Shown here: one piece after another, positions 6,003-61,835 of the stretch
Layout: each line of letters starts with the position of its first letter
Position numbering within the stretch: the first letter of the stretch is position 1
NCBI GenBank assembly: GCA_903908245.1
Contig: CAIVRE010000006.1
Span: 85,951-149,950, forward strand
DNA from: Candidatus Omnitrophota bacterium
GTDB taxonomy: Bacteria > Omnitrophota > Gorgyraeia > Zapsychrales > Fredricksoniimonadaceae
Length of the DNA stretch: 64,000 nt
Direction: 5' to 3'
Notes under the pieces: model-generated
Database searches by the model: none
Seen by the model: the letters and a program-made list of their open reading frames with translations, nothing else
What the model was told of the DNA's origin: nothing
Made by a program: the position numbers and the translations under genes

Positions 6003-7268
6003 ATGACAATGAAAAACGATCCCCGTTCTACCGCCAATATATTCCTGCCGCCCGTGACATTCTCGGCGTGCATGAATCACTGGACCATGCGCCTTTACAC
6101 CGCCTATGTTTATCTGGCACTGCGCGACAATGATCTGCGCGTACAGTTTTACGACCATCTCGACGACATCCCCGGCTTCGAAAAACACCTTCGATCGCAA
6201 ATAACAAAAAGCCCCCGCAGCAGGAACATCCATGGCATCGCCATGTTCCTGGGAAATAAAAAGAACGCGTTAAGGCTCATGCAACAGATCAGGGCCAAGG
6301 ACCCCCGCGGGCTGATCGTGGCCTTTGGCCCGACCGCCTCTTTTTTCCACCGGCAGATCCTGACCCGCGGCCTGGCCGATATTGTCATTACCGCAGACCC
6401 CGAGTTTGTTTTCCCGAAGCTCGTCCGGGCCGGAACAGATATCTCCACGGTCCCTAACCTGGCCCTTCTGCAACATGAAAAGATCATGAAAACCCGGCCA
6501 AAAACCTTTACCGACCTGGACTCCCTTCCTTTCGCCGGACAATATTTCTGTGATAAAGGACTGACGCCGGTCCCGGTCGTAACAGCCCGCGGATGTCCTT
6601 TCAGCTGTTCTTTCTGTGACCGCCCGCTCCTGTGGGGCGCACAAACACGCCTGCGGAGCGTTGATAATATTTTCGCCGAGATCCATTCCCTGGTAACCCG
6701 CTACAACCTCCCGCGGCTGTTCTTCGATGACGCCAATTTTATTCTCAATAAGGACCGGACCATCCATTTATGCCAACAGCTGACGAAACTGCCGAAACCC
6801 GTTTCCTGGGGCTGCACCGCCAGGGTTGATTGCGCCGACCCGAAAACCCTGCGCCTGATGCGATACGCCGGCTGCGAAACGGTTTATTTCGGGATCGAGT
6901 CCGGCGATGAAACGATCCTGCGGAATATAGGGAAGGAATACGGGCAAAAAGAGATCCTGCAGGCGGTTAAATGGACCCGGGACGCAGGCATAAAAGTGGG
7001 GATCTTCCTGACTGTCGGGAATCCTGGCGAATCCGGCCGATCACTGGTCAAAACGAAGAAACTTTTACGCGATCTGTACCCTTTTTCCGAACTCACGATC
7101 AACCCTCTGGTGGTGCTGCCCGGGACCCCCATCTATGCCCGATTCATCAAAGAAAAAAAGATCACCGAAGAAGCCTGTTTCGACAATGACACCCTGATGT
7201 TCTTCGATACCAAGGCCCAGGCCTACATGAAAGATATTGCCCAGTTGAGAAAGTTCTTTAAACAATGA
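6003..7268 (+). CDS. B12-binding-domain radical SAM enzyme (class-B-like).
   Basis: An N-terminal Rossmann-like B12-binding region precedes TARGCPFSCSFCDR, a CxxxCxxC cluster. The architecture is shared with 11803, 16455 and 17820. Confidence 0.85.
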   Translation: MTMKNDPRSTANIFLPPVTFSACMNHWTMRLYTAYVYLALRDNDLRVQFYDHLDDIPGFEKHLRSQITKSPRSRNIHGIAMFLGNKKNALRLMQQIRAKDPRGLIVAFGPTASFFHRQILTRGLADIVITADPEFVFPKLVRAGTDISTVPNLALLQHEKIMKTRPKTFTDLDSLPFAGQYFCDKGLTPVPVVTARGCPFSCSFCDRPLLWGAQTRLRSVDNIFAEIHSLVTRYNLPRLFFDDANFILNKDRTIHLCQQLTKLPKPVSWGCTARVDCADPKTLRLMRYAGCETVYFGIESGDETILRNIGKEYGQKEILQAVKWTRDAGIKVGIFLTVGNPGESGRSLVKTKKLLRDLYPFSELTINPLVVLPGTPIYARFIKEKKITEEACFDNDTLMFFDTKAQAYMKDIAQLRKFFKQ

Positions 7269-7278
7269 AAGACAACCG

Positions 7279-8274
7279 ATGATCCTTAAAGAAAATGAAC
7301 TGTTGCTTCGGCGGCGGCTTCGCGTGGCCGGCATCCGCGACAATAAATTGTATATCGGCCCGGAAGTGGTCCACCTCCACATCACGAACCGCTGCAATCT
7401 GCGTTGCCGGCACTGCTGGTACCATTCTCCGGATAATCCCGTGCACACCCGTCCGGCCCAGGACATGCCTTTGGCGGAATTCGACGCCATATTAAAAGAC
7501 TGCGCGGACCTGAAAGTCGACGCCCTTTATATCTCCGCCGAAGGAGAGCCGACCTTACATCCGCAATTCGAACAGATGATGGATCACGCAGCGAAATTCC
7601 CGTTAGCTTTAACGGTCTTTACGAATGCCGCATTCCCCGCCAGACTTCGCCCGGCTTTATTAAAAGCCGACCGCCTGATCATAGACATTAGCGCCGCGGA
7701 TGCCAAAATGTATCACGCCATCCATGGCGCGGATCATTTCAACAAAGTCATTGCCAACATCAAGGCATTATCGCGGATGAACGGGGCCTCGGGTAAAGAC
7801 GGCCTGATGTCTGTCACTTGTATCATCAATAAACTTAACGCGTCACGGACCGGGGAAATATCAAAACTGATGAACGACATGGGCATTAATTCTGTGGATT
7901 TCAAACCCATGCAGCCTCATGCCCATAACCAGGACATCCTGGTCCCCCAAAAAGATCAGCCGGCCCATTGTTTAAATCAGCCCCCTTTATTTAAGTGGTG
8001 CTTTCAAGGCTGGTTCTATATATCGATAAGATTGGACGGGCAGATCAGTTATTGCTGTTATGTCAACGAAATGAACGCCGCGCGATTGAACAAGGGATCG
8101 CTCAAGGCCGCCTGGAGATCACTGTCCCTGATGAAGGCACGCCTTCTGGGAAAGACCGGGCAACTCGGCAGGAAGTTCAGGGAATGCCCGGGGTGCGCCT
8201 TCCGAAAACAGAATACGGCCGTTCTTGCCGAATTGGCAAGAATGAAGAAAAATAGGTCCGTGCACACTCCTTAA
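7279..8274 (+). CDS. Radical SAM enzyme with a C-terminal Cys cluster (SPASM/twitch-like). It is tandem paralog 1.
   Basis: HITNRCNLRCRHC and AEGEPTL are present. The C-terminus has C...C..W...YCC...CPGC. It is ~55-60 % identical by eye to the next ORF. Confidence 0.85.
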   Translation: MILKENELLLRRRLRVAGIRDNKLYIGPEVVHLHITNRCNLRCRHCWYHSPDNPVHTRPAQDMPLAEFDAILKDCADLKVDALYISAEGEPTLHPQFEQMMDHAAKFPLALTVFTNAAFPARLRPALLKADRLIIDISAADAKMYHAIHGADHFNKVIANIKALSRMNGASGKDGLMSVTCIINKLNASRTGEISKLMNDMGINSVDFKPMQPHAHNQDILVPQKDQPAHCLNQPPLFKWCFQGWFYISIRLDGQISYCCYVNEMNAARLNKGSLKAAWRSLSLMKARLLGKTGQLGRKFRECPGCAFRKQNTAVLAELARMKKNRSVHTP

Positions 8275-8289
8275 AATGAAAGACCGTCG

Positions 8290-9285
8290 ATGATCCTGGA
8301 AAAAAATGAACAAGAACGCCGGTGGCGCCTTCGGGTGGCAGGGGCCCGTGATGAAAAACTGTATATCGGCCCGGAGATCGTTCATTTGCATATTACGAAC
8401 CGCTGCAATTTACGCTGCCGATACTGCTGGCACCATTCCCCCGGGAATCCGGAGCTCGCTCATCCGGCCCAGGACCTGCCTTTCAGGAAGTTCTGTGCCA
8501 TATTAAAAGACTGCCGGACATTGAAAGTCAATAACCTTTATATCTCCGGCGAAGGGGAACCGACCCTGCATCCCCGGTTTGCGCAAATGATGGACCTGGC
8601 CGAACAATATCCTTTGGCCGTTACGGTCTTTAGCAATGCCACCTTTCCGTCCAGCCTGCTCCCGGCCCTGTTAAAAGCGGACCATCTGGTCGTTGATCTT
8701 AGTGCGCCTGATGCCGCCGATTATCAGATCATCCACGGAGCGGATCATTTCAACCGCGTCGTCAATAACATCAAGGCCCTGTCGCAAATGCGCAAAGACC
8801 TCGGGAAACATCTCTCCATAACAGGCCGCTGTGTCATGAACCGGATCAATCAGCCGCGCCTTCATGAAATATCAGGCCTGATGAGGTCCATCGGAGTTGA
8901 CTCGATAGAACTCGTCCCGATGCAGCCAACCCCGTTCAACCGCGATATTGCGATCAAGCCGAAAGATCCATTACCCCATGGCCCGAAAAAAGGCCCTGAA
9001 TGCAACCGTTGTTTTAATGGATGGTTCTATCTTTCAGCAAGGCTCAACGGCCAGATGAGTTACTGCTGCCGGGTCCCTCAGATCAACACCGGGCATCTAT
9101 ACCGAAGCTCATTGAAAACAGCCTGGGGATCAAAAAAATTCATGGCCCTGCGCGTTCTGGGAAAGACCAGCCAGATCAATAAGAAATTCAAGGAATGCGC
9201 GGAATGTCATTACAAACGACAGAATATAGCGGTACTTCTCGAACTCGCAAGAATGAAACGAATAACCCCGCGAAAAAGCCCGTGA
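8290..9285 (+). CDS. Radical SAM enzyme with a C-terminal Cys cluster (SPASM/twitch-like). It is tandem paralog 2.
   Basis: HITNRCNLRCRYC and GEGEPTL are present. The C-terminus has C..C..W...YCC...CAEC. Confidence 0.85.
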   Translation: MILEKNEQERRWRLRVAGARDEKLYIGPEIVHLHITNRCNLRCRYCWHHSPGNPELAHPAQDLPFRKFCAILKDCRTLKVNNLYISGEGEPTLHPRFAQMMDLAEQYPLAVTVFSNATFPSSLLPALLKADHLVVDLSAPDAADYQIIHGADHFNRVVNNIKALSQMRKDLGKHLSITGRCVMNRINQPRLHEISGLMRSIGVDSIELVPMQPTPFNRDIAIKPKDPLPHGPKKGPECNRCFNGWFYLSARLNGQMSYCCRVPQINTGHLYRSSLKTAWGSKKFMALRVLGKTSQINKKFKECAECHYKRQNIAVLLELARMKRITPRKSP

Positions 9286-16458: not shown

Positions 16459-17813
16459 TGTCCATTCCCGGAGGAAAAATACTCGCGGCCCGCGCTGCGG
16501 AACGCCCGGAGCCAATGCTCCATCGAGCGCCCCTTGATGGCCGCCATATACGACGGGATCGCTTCCTCGTGGTCGCTTAACCAGTACGACTCGTCAAACC
16601 CCTCTTCCAGAGCCTGCTGATACAGCGGCGATCCAGGCATAATATACAGCGGAGAAACATCCACCACGCAAGAAGCCGGAAGCCGCTTTAAATTCTGAAA
16701 AGACTCTTTCAGGGTAACTTCTGTTTCTCCGGGGAAACCGATCATCAGGTGGACGCAAGGCCTTATCCCCGTTGACGCAACCAACGCCAAGTTCCGGATC
16801 GCCAGCCCCGGAGCATAGTTCTTCCCCGACGAACGCAGGATCCTGCGGGATAACGAATCCAGCCCGAAGAAAATACCCCGGCAGCCGGCCTTCTTCATCC
16901 CAAGCAAAAGCTCCTCATCGACAAGGTCGACCCTTGTTGTACATACCCAGGAAAAACAGAACCGCTCGCGGATGATCGCCGAACACAGCCGCAGGGCATA
17001 TTCCCTGTTAAGCGTAAAATTCATATCATGGAAATAAACAAAATCCCGGCAGCCTTCAGGGATCAGGTAAAGCTGTGCGATGACCTGATCGATGTTTTTT
17101 TCTGAAACCTTCCGCTGCCAAAGCCCGACGGTACTGCAGAACCGGCAAGCGAACGGACACCCCCGATGCGTTTCAACAGGGATCCCGTCGTGCATCAGGA
17201 TCGCGGCGTCCGGGTCTTTCAGCGGTTTGACCGGAAAAGCCTTAAGATCGATCAGCGGTAATTCGTCAAGACCGGTCAACGACGGACGGGATGCGCTGCG
17301 GTGAGGCTTCCCCCCGGACCGGAACGTTATCCCCGCCACAGACGAAAGGTCCCGGCCCGCATCGAGCGCCCTCAACAGCGCCTCAAAGGAATCCTCGCCT
17401 TCTCCCCTGACAACATAATCAACACACGGATACGAAGACAGTATCTGTCCGTCCAGGAAAGTGGCATGGATCCCGCCCATGATCACCGTGACCGCCGGGT
17501 CGACTTCCTTGACGAGCCGGGCAAGCTCGACACAGGCAAAACGGTTGAACGATTGGCATGAAATACCAATGACCGAAGGCCGCTCCCGCCGGATATACCG
17601 GGCCAGCGTCCCTGGCGAATAGTCGGTACCGCAATAGATCCGGCAGCGCGCCTTCAACCGCTCCTGAAGACAGGACGCTATTGACGCCAGCCCCAGGGAG
17701 AGCCGCAGCGGGGCTTCAAAAGGGTCCCGAAGGCGCGGGTTCCCCAAATGCCGTCCGGGTGGCAGAAAAAAAAGAATGTTAAAGCTGTTTATCCGGGATC
17801 CCATGATCATCAA
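16455..17813 (-). CDS. B12-binding-domain radical SAM enzyme.
   Basis: HRGCPFACRFC is present. An N-terminal B12-binding-like region is present. Confidence 0.85.
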   Translation of the reverse strand: MMIMGSRINSFNILFFLPPGRHLGNPRLRDPFEAPLRLSLGLASIASCLQERLKARCRIYCGTDYSPGTLARYIRRERPSVIGISCQSFNRFACVELARLVKEVDPAVTVIMGGIHATFLDGQILSSYPCVDYVVRGEGEDSFEALLRALDAGRDLSSVAGITFRSGGKPHRSASRPSLTGLDELPLIDLKAFPVKPLKDPDAAILMHDGIPVETHRGCPFACRFCSTVGLWQRKVSEKNIDQVIAQLYLIPEGCRDFVYFHDMNFTLNREYALRLCSAIIRERFCFSWVCTTRVDLVDEELLLGMKKAGCRGIFFGLDSLSRRILRSSGKNYAPGLAIRNLALVASTGIRPCVHLMIGFPGETEVTLKESFQNLKRLPASCVVDVSPLYIMPGSPLYQQALEEGFDESYWLSDHEEAIPSYMAAIKGRSMEHWLRAFRSAGREYFSSGNGQ

Positions 17814-23605: not shown

Positions 23606-23974
23606 CTATCCTTCCAGTAAAGATATGACTTTTAAATGATAGAACCGCAGATATTTTTCTTTTTCCCGTTCAGGCAAAGCTTCGAACTTCCCGCCGGCAC
23701 GATAGCCCTTGTATTGCTCGAAATACCCCGCCCAAACAACCTTTAAACACACCTCCAACCGCCCGATCTCGGGCAACTCCATCACCAAGCGGACGACCTG
23801 GTCCGGCTGAAGCCCTTCCGGCGACAAAAAACACATGCCATCAGGGGTAATATTGACCACTTGACTGGCAAAGATCTTGCCCGATCCCGCAAGAACCTCG
23901 CCCTGCGCGGCAATATCAACCCCGACTCTGCGCCATTCACGCGATTCATTCATAATATTATTATCAAGCCTCAT
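23606..23974 (-). CDS. PilZ-domain (c-di-GMP binding) protein.
   Basis: The RxxxR motif (REWRR) and D/NxSxxG-like NITPDGMCF are present. Confidence 0.45.
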   Translation of the reverse strand: MRLDNNIMNESREWRRVGVDIAAQGEVLAGSGKIFASQVVNITPDGMCFLSPEGLQPDQVVRLVMELPEIGRLEVCLKVVWAGYFEQYKGYRAGGKFEALPEREKEKYLRFYHLKVISLLEG

Positions 23975-24017
23975 TATCTTAATTTACCATATTTTCGACT
24001 TTCTTGCGAATAATTAA

Positions 24018-24081
24018 GGGGACACTTTACTTAATTCCCTTTTTAACCATCCGCGTTACGGGAATTAAGTAAAGTGTCCCC
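24018..24081. repeat. 21-bp perfect inverted repeat with a 22-nt spacer, 4 nt past the hcp stop codon. It is copy 1 of a palindromic element shared with 36859-36903.
   Basis: ggggacactttacttaattcc (24018-24038) pairs with ggaattaagtaaagtgtcccc (24061-24081). Confidence 0.7.
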
Positions 24082-24085
24082 CTAA

Positions 24086-25744
24086 TTACACGCCCGACAT
24101 GATCGCGGGAACATCGACCTCGGCTGTGGCCGTCGGCCTAATATTGAACTTCTCCACCAGCACCTTGGCCACATTGGGCGACAGGAACGCCGGAAGGGTC
24201 GGGCCCAGGCGGATATTCTTGACCCCCAGGAAAAGCAATGCCAGCAACACAGCCACCGCCTTCTGCTCATACCACGCGATATCGTAGGAGATCGGCAACT
24301 TGTTGATATCATCAAGCCCGAACGCCTCTTTAAGTTTAAGCGCGATGACCGCCAGTGAATACGAATCATTGCACTGACCAGCATCAAGCACGCGCGGGAT
24401 CCCGCCGATATCGCCCAGCTTCAGTTTGTTATAACGGTATTTGGCGCACCCCGCGGTCAGGATGACCGCGTCCTTCGGAAGGGCGGCGGCCACATCCGTA
24501 AAATACTGACGGTCCTTGTTTCGCCCGTCGCAACCGGCCATCACCACAAAACGTTTAATCGCTCCGCTCTTGACCGCGGCCACCACTTTATCGGCCAGTG
24601 CCATCACCTGGTTATGGCCGAAGCCGCCCACCAGTTCACCTGTTTCGATCTCTTTCGGAGCCGGACAGGACTTTGCGCACTTGATGATCGCAGCAAAATC
24701 CTTTCTTCCGCCTTCAGGCCGTTCCCCGATATGCACGGCCCCCGGATATCCGGCCGCACCCGTCGTAAACATCCTGCTCAAATAAGACCCTTTAACAGGA
24801 ATGATACAATTGGTCGTCATCAGGATCGGCCCGCTGAAATTCTCGAAATCCGAACCCTGATGCCACCAGGAACTGCCATAATTCCCGACGAAATTATCAT
24901 ACGCCTTGAACTTCGGATAATAATGGCCGGGAAGCATTTCACTGTGCGTGTACACATCAACGCCCGTCCCCCTGGTTTCTTCCAGAAGGTCTTCCAGGTC
25001 GCGCAGATCATGGCCGGAAATAAGAATGCCCGGATTCTTGCGCACGCCAAGGTTCACTTTGGTTATCTCCGGATTGCCGAACCTTTCGGTATTGGCCTTA
25101 TCCAGAAGAGCAAGCGTTGTCACCGCATTCCCTCCTGTCTTCATGACCATCGCGACCAGGTCATCGACGCTCAGGTCCTTCACCGTAGCGACCAAGGCAT
25201 CAACGATCTGCCCATAGATCGCCGGATCCTCATGCCCCAGGTCCGCCGCGTGATCGGCATACGCCGCCACCCCTTTAAGCCCGTACATAATAAGCTCGCG
25301 CAATGAACGGATATCCTCATTGCCCGTTGTCAACACACCCACACTGCCCGCCTTGGCACGGATCGCCTCGTCCGTATCGGCCGTCCAGGTCGCACATTCA
25401 GGCGCCGAAGCCTGGCATCCGCAACTCTGCGACGCGCCTAACACCTTGTGTTTCCAGATATCGCGAACTTTAAGGGCTTCCCTGATCCGTGCAATGATCA
25501 CCGACTCATCAAAATTGGCATTGGTGATCGTCATAAATATGGCGGAGGTCATAAACCTCCCTGTCTTAAAATCCAATGCAATGTCCTTTTGCCTGGCCTT
25601 ATCGGCCCACACCGCGATCCCCTTGACCGTAAAGATCAACAGGTCCTGAAGATTGGCGAGCTCATCACTCTTGCCGCAAACACCCTTGACCTTGCAGCCG
25701 GTATTCCCGGCTGTTTCCTGGCACTGATAACAGAACATGCTCAT
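24086..25744 (-). CDS. hcp: Hybrid cluster protein (hydroxylamine reductase / prismane protein).
   Basis: The N-terminus [25 protein letters not shown] is the Hcp N-terminal Cys motif. It is 552 aa. Confidence 0.9.
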
Positions 25745-26529: not shown

Positions 26530-26931
26530 TCATCTCTTCATCAACGACGCGATCGTGACTCCACGCAAATGCGCCAGCGCCATGGCCTCGATCTGCTTGA
26601 TCTCGCGGCGCAAAGGACATGTCTTCACGCATTCACACAACTTCTTCCTGAAAAGACAGTCCCCCATTGAGACCGGCCCCTGAAAAAGTGCTATCAGATC
26701 GGCCAAACGGATCTTTTCAACCGGTAAAACCAGCGTAAAACCGCCGTTCTTCCCCTTGGCCGATGCCAGATATCCGGACTTCTGAAGCGCCTGAAGGGTC
26801 TTGCGCATGAACGGCCTGGGAAGTTCAAGGTCGCGCTCAAGATCTCGCGCCGACACTCTTTCCGGCGCCTTCCCGGCCATGTGGATCAGAGCGCGCACCG
26901 CATAATCTGTATTTCGGGTCAACAGGTTCAT
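26530..26931 (-). CDS. Rrf2-family transcriptional regulator (NsrR/IscR-like).
   Basis: MNLLTRNTDYAVRALIHMA is an Rrf2 N-terminal winged HTH. Cys residues are present for a possible Fe-S cluster. It is located upstream of the ferredoxin-hcp pair. Confidence 0.8.
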   Translation of the reverse strand: MNLLTRNTDYAVRALIHMAGKAPERVSARDLERDLELPRPFMRKTLQALQKSGYLASAKGKNGGFTLVLPVEKIRLADLIALFQGPVSMGDCLFRKKLCECVKTCPLRREIKQIEAMALAHLRGVTIASLMKR

Positions 26932-36054: not shown

Positions 36055-36135
36055 AAAACACTCCTCGCTTTTTTATTCCGCTGTGTTAAAATTCGTTCCT
36101 GTGAATAATGACATCATCCCTGTCATTATTCCTAT

Positions 36136-36207
36136 GTCCCCTTAGCTTAACGGATAAAGCACCAGCCTCCGGAGCTGGTGATGGGGGTTCGATTCCCCCA
36201 GGGGGCG
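36136..36207 (+). tRNA. tRNA-Arg (anticodon CCG).
   Basis: Manual folding gives a 7-bp acceptor stem with U2-G71, D-arm GCTT/AAGC, anticodon stem CCAGC/GCTGG with loop CTCCGGA, T-arm GGGGG-TTCGATT-CCCCC and discriminator G. Confidence 0.8.
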
Positions 36208-36217
36208 TTCTTTCCTC

Positions 36218-36835
36218 TTAATAATTCTTCGCGCGGACCTCAAACACACTTTTCGGATTCTGGCATACCGGACAAACATTGGGCGTCTGTTTACCCACAT
36301 GGATATGCCCGCACTCGCGGCAGACCCAGACGGTCTCTTCATCTTTAACAAAGATCTTATTATTCTTTAAGTTCTCCGCAAGCTTGCGATAGCGCTCTTC
36401 ATGCTCTTTCTCGACCTTGGCGATCATTTTAAACTGCGCTCCGATCTTCGGGAACCCTTCTTTCTCCGCGACAGCTCCGAACGCGGGATAAATATCGACG
36501 AACTCTTCATGCTCGCCTTCCGCGGCGGCGATCAGGTTCTGATACGTATCACCGACGACGCCTGCCGGATAGGTGGCCGTGATCTCCAGCGGCCCGCCCT
36601 CAAGAAAAGCAAAGAACGCCTGCGCGTGCAATTGCTCGTTATGCGCGGTCTCATCGAAAATAGCCGCGATCTGGTCAAAGCCATCCTCACGCGCTTTTTC
36701 AGCGAACATGTTGTAACGATTGCGCGCCTGCGACTCGCCGGCAAACGCTTTCAGCAGATTCTTCTCGGTGGCAGTACCCTTGATGGTCTTGCCCGCGCGG
36801 TATGAAGCAAATCTTTCCCTTAATTCGGCTTTCAT
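36218..36835 (-). CDS. rbr: Rubrerythrin.
   Basis: Ferritin-like diiron motifs (E...EGEHEE, EKEHEERY) are present. The C-terminal rubredoxin-like domain has CRECGHIH...CPVCQNP. Confidence 0.85.
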   Translation of the reverse strand: MKAELRERFASYRAGKTIKGTATEKNLLKAFAGESQARNRYNMFAEKAREDGFDQIAAIFDETAHNEQLHAQAFFAFLEGGPLEITATYPAGVVGDTYQNLIAAAEGEHEEFVDIYPAFGAVAEKEGFPKIGAQFKMIAKVEKEHEERYRKLAENLKNNKIFVKDEETVWVCRECGHIHVGKQTPNVCPVCQNPKSVFEVRAKNY

Positions 36836-36858
36836 CGCGAACCTCCATGTCGGTTAAT

Positions 36859-36903
36859 AGGGGGGCACTTTACTTAATTCAAAAGAATTAAGTAAAGTGT
36901 CCC
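36859..36903. repeat. ~20-bp inverted repeat with a 4-nt loop between the ABC-F stop and the rubrerythrin start. It is copy 2 of the palindromic element seen after hcp. Coordinates are +/-1.
   Basis: ggggggcactttacttaattc aaaa gaattaagtaaagtgtcccc shares the 20-nt arm with 24018-24081. Confidence 0.7.
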
Positions 36904-36928
36904 CATACTATCACCCCGCGAGGGGAAA

Positions 36929-38545
36929 TCAAGAATAAAGCTGATGGCGCATATCCTTCAGGCGCTCGTCGGAAAGATAATCATCGAAATTGGTCCCCGC
37001 GCGGTCAATACAACCCTTGGGCGTTATCTCAATGATACGGTTGGCCACCGTTGAAACCAGCGTGTGGTCATGGGAAGAGAAAAGAACGGTGCCTTTGAAG
37101 CGCTCCAGCCCTTTATTCAAAGCGGAAATAGATTCAAGGTCCAGGTGATTCGTGGGCTCATCCATCACCAGGACATTGGGTTTAAGGAGCATCATGCGCG
37201 AAAGCATGCAACGCACTTTCTCGCCGCCCGAAAGGACATTGACCTGCTTGAGGGATTCCTCGCCGCTGAAAAGCATTTTGCCCAGGAAGCCGCGGATGAA
37301 CATCTCGCTGGTATCATCCGAATATTGCCGCAACCAGTCAATGATCGTCAGCTCGCTGTCAAAATATCTGGAATTGTCTTTCGGGAAATACGCCCGCTTG
37401 GTGGAAGCGCCCCACTTGAACGACCCGACATCCGCGGACATTTCCCCCATCAGGATCTGGAAAAGCGTCGTCTTCACAAGGTCATTCGGACCGACAAAAG
37501 CGACCTTGTCCCCTTTTTCAATATTGATATTCAATTTGGGGAACAACGGCTGCCCATCCACCAGCCTGGACAAACCGTCGATCGAAAGAAGGTCATTGCC
37601 GGCTTCGCGCTCCTGCTCGAATCCGACGAACGGATATTTCCGCGAAGATGGCTCGATCTGTTCAATGGTCAGCTTCTCGAGCATCTTCTTGCGGGTGGTC
37701 GCCTGCTTGGATTTGGAAAGGTTGGCGGAAAACCGCGCGATGAATTCCTGCAGCTCCTTGCGCTTGTCTTCTTTCTTCTTGTTATCCTCGGAACGCTGAC
37801 GCAGGGCCAGCTGGCTCGACTCGGACCAGAACGTATAATTCCCGGTATAAAGCTTGATCTTGCCGAAATCGATATCGGCGATCATCGTGCAAACATTGTC
37901 CAGGAAATGGCGGTCGTGGGAAACAATAATGGCCGTATTCTCGAACTTGGCCAGGAATTCTTCCAGCCACAGGCAGGTCTCGACATCCAGGTGGTTGGTG
38001 GGCTCGTCCAATAACAGGACATCAGGGCTGCCGAAAAGGGCCTGCGCCAACAGCACGCGCACCTTCTGGCCGCCTTCCAGCTGTTTCATCGGTACAGCAT
38101 GCAATCCCTCGGCGACTCCCAGGTCATTCAAAAGTTTTGCGGCATCGGATTCGGCGGTCCAGCCGTTAAGGTCGGAAAATTCGCCCTCAAGTTCGGAAGC
38201 GCGCATGCCGTCGGCATCCGAAAAATCCGCCTTGGCGTAAATGGCGTCTTTTTCAGCCATCACATCAAAAAGGCGTTTGTGCCCCATCATCACCGTCATC
38301 AGCGGCGTAAGATCATCAAACGCGAACTGGTCCTGCTTAAGGACCGAGATACGCTGGCCCGGCGTAATGGCAACCTCGCCCTCCGTGGAATCAATCTCGC
38401 CTGAAAGGACCTTCAGGAACGTGGACTTGCCGGAACCGTTGGCACCGATAAGCCCGTAACAATTCCCGGGCGTGAATGTAATATTGACGCCGGAAAATAA
38501 TTTGCGTGAGCCGAACTGAAGGGAAACATTATTGACAGTGATCAT
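36929..38545 (-). CDS. ABC-F family ATPase (two tandem ABC domains, no TMD; EttA/Uup-like translation factor).
   Basis: Two Walker A motifs (GANGSGKST, GPNDLVKTT) and two ABC signatures (LEGGQKVR, LSGGEKVR) are present. No membrane domain is present. Confidence 0.85.
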   Translation of the reverse strand: MITVNNVSLQFGSRKLFSGVNITFTPGNCYGLIGANGSGKSTFLKVLSGEIDSTEGEVAITPGQRISVLKQDQFAFDDLTPLMTVMMGHKRLFDVMAEKDAIYAKADFSDADGMRASELEGEFSDLNGWTAESDAAKLLNDLGVAEGLHAVPMKQLEGGQKVRVLLAQALFGSPDVLLLDEPTNHLDVETCLWLEEFLAKFENTAIIVSHDRHFLDNVCTMIADIDFGKIKLYTGNYTFWSESSQLALRQRSEDNKKKEDKRKELQEFIARFSANLSKSKQATTRKKMLEKLTIEQIEPSSRKYPFVGFEQEREAGNDLLSIDGLSRLVDGQPLFPKLNINIEKGDKVAFVGPNDLVKTTLFQILMGEMSADVGSFKWGASTKRAYFPKDNSRYFDSELTIIDWLRQYSDDTSEMFIRGFLGKMLFSGEESLKQVNVLSGGEKVRCMLSRMMLLKPNVLVMDEPTNHLDLESISALNKGLERFKGTVLFSSHDHTLVSTVANRIIEITPKGCIDRAGTNFDDYLSDERLKDMRHQLYS

Positions 38546-52926: not shown

Positions 52927-52930
52927 AAAA

Positions 52931-53004
52931 CGTCATCCCGCGGCCGGATGGCCGAGGGATCTCAAGGGTTGATCTTGAGACCCCTCACTTCGTTCGGGAT
53001 GACG
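52931..53004. repeat. Compound inverted-repeat element between convergent genes. Its 3' arm (52982-53004) is repeated at 61813-61835.
   Basis: The outer arms are cgtcatcccg...cgggatgacg. The inner arms are gagggatctcaag / cttgagacccctc. The small hairpin cggcc ggat ggccg is also present. Confidence 0.6.
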
Positions 53005-53180
53005 CATGAGCCGTTTAACGTCCTGCTCAGGACATCCTACTGCAACCGGACTTACAATGCGCTACCCGGCGCAATAACCAGCGAGTGTAGATCCTTTCCA
53101 TGATCAACCCCCTTTTTGATGTTGAGAACAAATACTCTTCAACACATTAGTCCGCAGCCGATCAAAAACCTTTCAAAGAA

Positions 53181-61770: not shown

Positions 61771-61812
61771 TCGAAGGACCTTTCTTTAAGCTCTGCCGCT
61801 AAACCTTGCGAT

Positions 61813-61835
61813 CCCTCACTTCGTTCGGGATGACG
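61813..61835. repeat. Second copy of the 23-nt element ccctcacttcgttcgggatgacg, in the nqrC-nqrB intergenic spacer.
   Basis: It is identical to 52982-53004. Confidence 0.6.

Follow-up and report, generated by a model that had tools for sequence, protein, structure and literature searches.

Two inverted repeats built from the same arm lie in a 64-kb stretch of a Candidatus Omnitrophota contig (CAIVRE010000006.1, positions 85,951 to 149,950; hereafter the window), one just past the stop codon of hcp (hybrid-cluster protein) and the other just before a rubrerythrin gene. The locus raises the question of whether such a pair marks a shared stress regulon or arrived at its two positions regardless of the genes there. 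A reading made from the sequence alone had left the choice between a repetitive extragenic palindrome (REP)-like or terminator hairpin family and an operator common to nitrosative/oxidative-stress genes. Here, we show that in other genomes the same arm forms the terminal inverted repeats (TIRs) on either side of genes for TIR-associated tyrosine transposases (TIRYTs), whose complete units are known as TIRtrons. From the comparisons described below, we consider it very likely that each hairpin is a gene-less TIR dimer of a TIRtron, a non-autonomous unit resembling REPINs (inverted REP doublets) or miniature inverted-repeat transposable elements (MITEs), and that it entered its spacer independently of what the neighbouring genes do. 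The REP-like proposal therefore holds in spirit, and is stated more precisely as TIR dimers of a TIRtron.

Four copies of the 20-nt arm GGGGACACTTTACTTAATTC are present in the window, arranged as two head-to-head hairpins, with the 18-mer GGACACTTTACTTAATTC at 24020-24037 (+), 24062-24079 (-), 36863-36880 (+, one mismatch) and 36885-36902 (-). The repetition noticed at first reading is real and not due to chance, given that only 0.02 matches are expected in the window and that none of 100 shuffles reached four; a scan of the 64 kb with up to six mismatches to the 20-mer found no further arm. Site 1 lies between the hcp stop codon (24086-24088) and the start of an open reading frame (ORF) with a PilZ domain (23974). 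Its palindrome, initially given as 21 bp with a 22-nt spacer, is genuine but measures 22 perfectly paired bp (24018-24039 / 24060-24081) around a 20-nt spacer, and with some mismatches allowed (91% complementarity) the pairing extends to 34 nt. Site 2 occupies the gap from the ABC-F stop codon (36929-36931) to the rubrerythrin start (36835), where the 20-nt arms (36861-36880 / 36885-36904, one mismatch) enclose a 4-nt loop, as had been reported. The distance to the rubrerythrin ATG, put at about 30 nt, needed correction: the 20-nt arm ends 25 nt from it and the full 26-nt arm 19 nt. All four genes neighbouring the two hairpins are on the minus strand. The predicted RNA folds reach -56.8 kcal/mol at site 1 (z = -11) and -42.4 kcal/mol at site 2 (z = -6.8), and the predicted DNA folds -28.2 and -20.6 kcal/mol, respectively.

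The hairpins are not assembly artefacts, because their sequences are identical in independent ENA/Logan assemblies of the same organism (site 1 in L143-L145, site 2 in L045-L049). One short contig begins exactly at the hairpin, as a repeat would predict, and the recurrence of the sites with their native flanks also rules out a sequencing adapter. No catalogued RNA family accounts for them: at gathering thresholds, Rfam returned tRNA only for the whole window and no family at the hairpins, and a lax scan around site 1 gave only sub-threshold matches to plant miRNA precursors (i.e., generic long hairpins). A literature search with the arm sequence found no paper containing it.

The arm is dispersed widely in other genomes. 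Scanning one genome per species (596 Gb) for the exact 18-mer gave 44 loci, and scanning metagenomes with the 20-mer added a further 81. Because about 17 chance matches to the 18-mer are expected in 596 Gb by our own calculation, lone matches lacking the GGGG or AATT margin (e.g., L003 and L006) were discounted; most genome matches have either a second arm nearby or an ..AATT..GGGG margin. The metagenome-assembled genomes (MAGs) among them are labelled Omnitrophota, Desulfobacterota/Geobacter, Aminicenantes, Planctomycetota/Brocadia, Hydrogenedentota and Sphingomonadales, with one flanked single arm in a Nitrospirae MAG, and the record titles of the 125 other loci name at least six phyla. Across this range host G+C runs from 36 to 68%, with the arm core unchanged. 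The 18-mer is absent from IMG/VR viral contigs, which gives no sign of a phage vector.

We then catalogued all arms within three mismatches of GGGGACACNNTACTTAATT at 129 loci, obtaining 260 arms in 170 clusters. Single arms make up 93 clusters and simple head-to-head pairs, with 2-116 nt between the cores, another 53; the remainder are direct doublets (15), larger or mixed clusters (8) and one tail-to-tail pair. Clusters are biased towards intergenic positions, as 20% of them fall inside crude ORFs versus 73% of random placements. Conservation among the 226 distinct arm sequences has sharp limits at -6 and +19, comprising six conserved outer positions, A-(A/G)-T-T-(C/A/T)-N, plus one inner C, with background composition beyond. 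The full arm is therefore 26 nt long, AATTCN-GGGGACAC-NNN-AC-TTAATTC. At the two outermost variable positions, the arms of one dimer agree in about 72% of cases, versus about 30% between dimers.

An all-against-all comparison of the ORFs near the arms at the 44 genome loci identified a single recurrent family bordering the arm, a protein of about 220 aa with the Pfam domain Y1_Tnp (PF01797). Its best NCBIfam match is the REP-associated tyrosine transposase (RAYT; RayT equivalog) at 58.9 bits, below the 80-bit cutoff, and its sole PDB sequence match is E. coli TnpA-REP (4ER8, E = 0.0016), aligned over the HUH and tyrosine motifs. In the relevant sections of Di Nocera et al. (2013, PMC3733652), TIRYTs are described as RAYT-like genes between long TIRs, the units being termed TIRtrons; the TIRs share the motif GGGGWSAS, and TIR families occur as single, dimeric or grouped copies. 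The TIRYTs correspond to TnpA-Y1 subclass 2.1, i.e., Bertels' Group 1 RAYT, according to the classification sections of Quentin et al. (2018, PMC6006769), where the subclass is characterized by the motifs NHVH, W[EQ]/FQ and YIELNP or Y[IV]HLNP. Seven arm-linked proteins, 218-243 aa in length, conserve NHVH, (W/F)QGRF and YVE(M/R)NP. Identity to GSU2396, which is among the TIRYTs aligned in Additional file 5 of Di Nocera et al. (PMC3733652), is 78% for the protein of a Geobacter locus (L037) and 52% for that of L092. The arms themselves carry GGGGWSAS as GGGGACAC in three of the four window copies and as GGGGGCAC in the fourth.

The arms bracket these genes. At the Geobacter locus, the TIRYT gene is preceded by (AGGAGTTCC)x4-GGGGACACCTTACTTAATTC and followed by GAATTAAGTAAAGTGTCCCC-AGAACTCAC, which overlaps its stop codon; L016, also found via the arm, has the same layout with the downstream arm reduced to its outer half. 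An arm-independent test used five TIRYT genes fetched by protein homology alone, from G. pickeringii (L050), metagenome contigs (L051, L052) and Omnitrophota (L139, L141). All five carry (A/G)AATT..-GGG(G)ACAC-NNN-AC-TTAATT 20-90 nt upstream of the ATG, and three (L050, L051, L139) have the reverse-complement arm at or over the stop codon; the downstream arm of L052 has kept its outer half with a diverged inner half, and the downstream end of L141 is disrupted. Overall, the upstream arm was present at each of the ten TIRYT genes examined in other genomes and the inverted downstream arm was recognisable at seven (L037, L050, L051, L139, L092, L097, L128). The last three of these are full TIRYT genes with the exact TTT-variant arm of the window, encoding proteins 44-48% identical to that of L037; they are flanked by single arms (L092), by head-to-head dimers (L097, host G+C 67%) and by direct doublets (L128). 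The central NNN differs among TIRtrons (TTT, CAT, CTT, AAT, AAC) and, in intact units, the downstream arm carries the three complementary bases. TIRtrons with variant arms also occur in other Omnitrophota (L139 and L141, with a decayed gene in L014). A TIRYT-like ORF is found in 11 of 125 arm-ascertained loci (0.68 Mb), far above expectation for a gene averaging fewer than two copies per replicon. Since head-to-head is the mutual orientation of the arms around a TIRYT gene, a dimer is in effect a TIRtron minus its gene.

Two further results concern how the dimers came to lie where they do. An Omnitrophota MAG has the same 67-nt dimer, with no difference even in the 15-nt loop, at two sites whose flanks are unrelated (L030, L041), implying that at least there the dimer was copied as one piece, in the manner of REPINs and MITEs; this unit copying is seen at L030/L041 and not for the two copies of the window. 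Inspection of the flanks of both window sites and of L030/L041 revealed no direct target-site duplication, and insertion without such duplication is expected of HUH/Y1 enzymes. The second result comes from the closest relatives found, L053 and L054, with about 80% protein identity. L054 keeps the order ABC-F to rubrerythrin with a spacer of 54 nt, in which the site 2 dimer is absent: the flanks align on both sides, through a small hairpin after ABC-F (CCCCGCGAGGGG in the window, between the ABC-F stop and site 2, its position kept) and a GGAGG followed by the ATG, and some 40 nt, those with the dimer, have no counterpart in L054. In L053 the gene order Rrf2-Fer4-hcp-PilZ-response regulator and the C-terminus of hcp (..GV*) are the same as in the window, and no dimer lies between hcp and PilZ. 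No arm copy was found in the 13-21 kb read of these relatives. Judged from these alignments, both dimers of the window were inserted within this particular lineage.

If IS608 TnpA and E. coli TnpA-REP are a guide, the two arms would pair into a long hairpin when the DNA is single-stranded (e.g., on the lagging-strand template). A TIRYT encoded elsewhere in the genome would bind this hairpin, cut at the outer arm ends next to the AATTCN margin, and move or copy the unit without target-site duplication. Once inserted, the dimer would probably be transcribed with its neighbours into a very stable predicted RNA stem, which, as a side effect, could stop 3' exonucleases, make the polymerase pause or terminate, or become a target of RNase III. 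Here we infer from related systems that the dimers are mobilised in trans, where they would be cut and what they might do as RNA; our literature search, in which only two papers used the term TIRYT, found no biochemical work on any such enzyme, and the single-strand cleavage model is thus pure analogy.

That shortage of biochemistry is one of several points that weigh against reading the hairpins as mobile units of this kind. The roughly 73 kb covered contain just two copies, and since their loops and outer 6 nt are dissimilar, neither is a recent duplicate of the other. Instead of being active mini-elements, they might be old relics or the products of deletion in situ within complete TIRtrons. 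Neither the 64-kb window nor the 9 kb past one of its ends contains a TIRYT gene, and a cognate enzyme in this genome is thus putative. The phylum assignments depend on MAG binning, and arm conservation is partly inflated, the other loci having been found with the exact arm as query.

Several features of the TIRtrons deserve mention in their own right. The TIRYT stop codon lies inside or at the downstream TIR (L037 4540-4575, L092 2780-2810, L139 ~2150, L050/L051 ~2650), the last residues (..KPGPK..) being encoded just before it, so that the end of the gene and the end of the element overlap. The outer TIR end is often tandemly repeated as partial copies beside TIRYT genes, namely at L141 1240-1420 (three copies of GAATTCC-GGGGACACAATAC with shorter stubs before them), L051 2650-2760 (GTGTCCCCGGAATTT x3), L037 3800-3860 and 4554-4660 (AGGAGTTCC x4), and downstream of 4248 in L016; these may have been left by repeated rounds of cutting or re-priming where the element ends. 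A -35-like hexamer, TTGACT, stands within a few nt inside the upstream TIR of five TIRtrons (L037, L050, L051, L052, L139) and is probably the transposase promoter; the loops of the two window dimers lack it. Larger Y1 proteins of about 315 aa, which share 25-31% identity with that of L037, are encoded 400-460 nt from an exact arm at L120 308-1252 and L125 1242-2198.

Table 1. Positions in the window of the two TIR dimers, their arms and the neighbouring genes.
Feature	Coordinates	Strand	Remarks
Site 1, complete head-to-head TIR dimer	24012..24087	none	76 nt: two 26-nt arms + 24-nt centre
Site 1 left arm	24012..24037	+	AATTAA-GGGGACAC-TTT-AC-TTAATTC = outer 6 nt + 20-nt core
Site 1 right arm	24062..24087	-	Identical 26 nt on the minus strand except outer 6 nt AATTAG; outermost 2 nt run into the hcp stop codon
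Site 2, complete head-to-head TIR dimer	36855..36910	none	56 nt: two 26-nt arms + 4-nt loop AAAA
Site 2 left arm	36855..36880	+	TAATAG-GGGGGCAC-TTT-AC-TTAATTC; one core mismatch, G for A at 36865
Site 2 right arm	36885..36910	-	Exact 20-nt core; outer 6 nt TAGTAT
hcp (hybrid-cluster protein, Prismane family)	24086..25744	-	Pfam PF03063, E = 1e-166; context only
PilZ-domain ORF	23606..23974	-	Pfam PF07238; start 37 nt beyond the site 1 element; context only
Rrf2 gene	26530..26931		Upstream of Fer4-hcp
Rubrerythrin	36218..36835	-	Pfam PF02915, PF21349; ATG 19 nt beyond the site 2 element; context only
ABC-F ATPase	36929..38545	-	Pfam PF00005, PF12848; stop 18 nt before the site 2 element; context only

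Three observations from elsewhere in the window complete this picture. A tRNA-Arg (CCG) gene at 36135-36208 (+) lies directly downstream of rubrerythrin on the opposite strand. A second, unrelated short repeat, CTTG(A/C)GA(C/T)CCCTCACTTCGTTCGGGATGACG, has two copies (52930-53005 and 61805-61835) that share 23 nt exactly, with a chance expectation of 0; a partial inverted partner precedes copy 1, and the two form another palindromic element. At 7264-9257, a tandem duplication with a period of 1011 nt and 71-75% identity probably represents two adjacent paralogous genes or domains.

The alternative that survives best is that the hairpins now serve the host as RNA elements, either as stems that resemble terminators or protect 3' ends downstream of hcp and ABC-F, or as sites of processing by which upstream and downstream genes are uncoupled. 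We regard such a role as possible but doubtful; it is compatible with an origin as mobile elements. The great stability of the predicted RNA stems (-56.8 and -42.4 kcal/mol) and the position of both hairpins just past stop codons are consistent with it, and for REPs 3' of coding regions, transcription and roles in termination and mRNA stabilization have been hypothesized in passages of Di Nocera et al. (PMC3733652). The hcp junction also speaks for it. In L053, hcp is followed at 16880-16925 by a textbook G+C-rich intrinsic terminator, GGGCGGCC-AGTT-CGGCCGCCC-TTTTG, with its T tract, and the corresponding hcp/PilZ spacer of the window (23975-24085) has no such terminator and only the TIR dimer instead. 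Against this role, sequence inspection showed no T tract after either stem, the tails being TTAATTATTCGC and TATTAACC, so that the intrinsic-terminator part of the original proposal did not hold. A terminator scan likewise reported no site at either hairpin, although it accepts loops of 3-8 nt only and site 1 is outside its reach. The genes flanking the clusters in other genomes are of mixed orientation (33 tandem, 16 divergent, 14 convergent), which indicates no general preference for the 3' ends of genes.

A canonical REP or REPIN of the E. coli/Pseudomonas type, mobilised by a Group 2 or 3 RAYT, is very improbable, even though the hairpin-forming inverted doublets, their intergenic dispersal, the link to a RAYT-like gene and the match of the transposase to E. 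coli TnpA-REP as its only PDB hit all point in that direction. The folding energy of a single arm is 0 to -2.8 kcal/mol, which does not surpass that of shuffled sequences, and having no structure of its own sets the arm apart from a REP; folding likewise ruled out a REP-like self-folding of the arm through its AATT-rich ends. Inspection of the arm consensus revealed no 5' GT[AG]G or CGTC tag at either end. The transposase scores only 58.9 bits against the 80-bit RayT cutoff and matches 4ER8 at E = 0.0016 only, and it is assigned to the TIRYTs both by its motifs and by being 78% identical to GSU2396. Of the REP-like or terminator family first suggested, it is therefore the dispersed, mostly intergenic family tied to a RAYT-like tyrosine transposase that stands, and the canonical REP that does not. 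The dimers do conform to the definition of a REPIN as two inverted units and a spacer forming one hairpin copied as a unit, the copying being that seen at L030/L041.

Slightly less probable still is that the hairpins are classical MITEs of an insertion sequence with a DDE transposase. They are short and intergenic, with terminal inverted repeats and a variable centre, but direct target repeats are missing at the window sites and at L030/L041 alike, and DDE transposases do not recur near the arms, where the sole recurrent neighbour is the arm-bracketed Y1/HUH enzyme.

The idea that the palindromes are operators of a shared dimeric regulator (Rrf2, NsrR or HcpR-type) co-controlling hcp and rubrerythrin draws on the fact that both are typical stress-regulon genes, on the Rrf2 gene upstream of Fer4-hcp and on the 19 nt between site 2 and the rubrerythrin ATG, yet site 1 lies downstream of hcp, away from its promoter, half-site spacing is 20 versus 4 nt in the window and 2-116 nt elsewhere, and neither site exists in the relatives, whose gene orders, Rrf2-Fer4-hcp among them, are those of the window. 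Copies elsewhere adjoin unrelated genes in many phyla, which is the very scatter that the sequence-only reading had named as decisive against an operator: none of the approximately 170 other clusters adjoins a homologue of hcp, rubrerythrin or Rrf2, the two ABC-F homologues detected at other loci are 2-6 kb away from the arms, and the transposase is the sole recurrent neighbour. The operator reading is thereby refuted, and we give it practically no credence.

Other identities were rejected on sequence features: an integron attC site (no R''/R' boxes, RYYYAAC / GTTRRRY, in our own reading), a sigma-54 promoter (GGCAC-N5-TT in the site 2 arm, which we read as a coincidence, the main family having GGACAC without the GC of the -12 box), a snap-back palindrome from fold-back synthesis of unlimited extent (pairing ends sharply 6 nt outside GGGG), and membership of IS200/IS605 (the ends are inverted repeats, and the proteins have a Y..NP motif and 218-243 aa).

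Returning to the TIR dimers of a TIRtron, we can ask how far the family extends as a system. Three elements were worked out here and were not met in those portions of the literature that we consulted: 1) an arm of 26 nt with sharp ends, 2) a 20-nt core common to TIRYTs that are only 44-52% identical and whose hosts span 36-68% G+C, and 3) a dimer copied together with its loop. A broader and frankly speculative proposal is one that we rate as rather unlikely in its entirety: one 26-nt TIR with an identical 20-nt core might serve a single, horizontally spreading TIRYT lineage in at least six phyla and at 36-68% G+C, its head-to-head dimers might be true REPIN-like replicators of Group 1 RAYTs, and some of them, e.g., the one at the position of the relative's hcp terminator, might have been co-opted as RNA 3'-end modules. 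To our knowledge, Group 1 RAYTs are currently regarded as having no REP or REPIN partners. They are described, in the sections of Bertels et al. (2017, PMC5581495) devoted to them, as the largest, most widely distributed and most insertion-sequence-like RAYT group, with moderately repeated flanking 16-mers and fewer than two gene copies per replicon on average, and are said there to transfer horizontally more often.

For the annotation of the window, these results remove a tempting regulatory link, in that two mobile-element ends landed by hcp and rubrerythrin by chance. For the TIRYT field, in which the largest RAYT group is almost unstudied, the data supply a 26-nt recognition sequence with clear-cut limits, a marked bias towards head-to-head pairs, the copying of a dimer with its loop and many natural variants from uncultivated phyla. 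They thus offer specific substrates on which a TIRYT could first be tested biochemically. Moreover, the dimers put very stable predicted RNA stems into operons, which may matter for host expression.

Compared with known systems, the dimers share with the MITEs of DDE transposons a construction from two transposon ends without a gene, a short length and a dispersed distribution; unlike them, they show no target-site duplication and no DDE enzyme. The IS200/IS605 family, represented by IS608 TnpA, has in common with the arm-linked enzymes the HUH motif and catalytic tyrosine (Pfam Y1_Tnp), hairpin recognition on single-stranded DNA and insertion without target duplication. However, the ends of IS200 are dissimilar subterminal hairpins on one strand, whereas here they are inverted repeats, and its core-only protein of about 150 aa has a Y...Q motif, in contrast to Y..NP and 218-243 aa here, the arm-linked TIRYT proteins bearing an extra C-terminal extension of about 90 aa. 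The REPINs and their RAYTs (Bertels and Rainey 2011, PMC3116915; REPs and bacterial interspersed mosaic elements, BIMEs, of E. coli) offer another comparison: they too are non-autonomous inverted doublets that fold into a hairpin, are mostly intergenic, share their repeats with the flanks of a usually low-copy HUH/Y1 gene, and lack target-site duplication, with a presumed single-strand mechanism. The differences are that the unit here is a non-palindromic TIR without a GTAG tag whereas a REP is itself a hairpin, that the enzyme belongs to another RAYT group, and that copy number in the window is low. The closest counterparts are the TIRtrons and TIR families, although the window holds orphan dimers only, with no TIRYT gene, and the host is an uncultivated Omnitrophota, the copies described here being mostly in MAGs and metagenome contigs. 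In both cases, a RAYT-like Y1 gene is bracketed by long TIRs with GGGGWSAS, TIR copies are dispersed as singles, dimers and clusters, of which the window has two dimers, and taxonomic spread is wide and patchy; the arm-linked protein, 78% identical to the TIRYT GSU2396, carries the same NHVH, WQ and Y..NP motifs.

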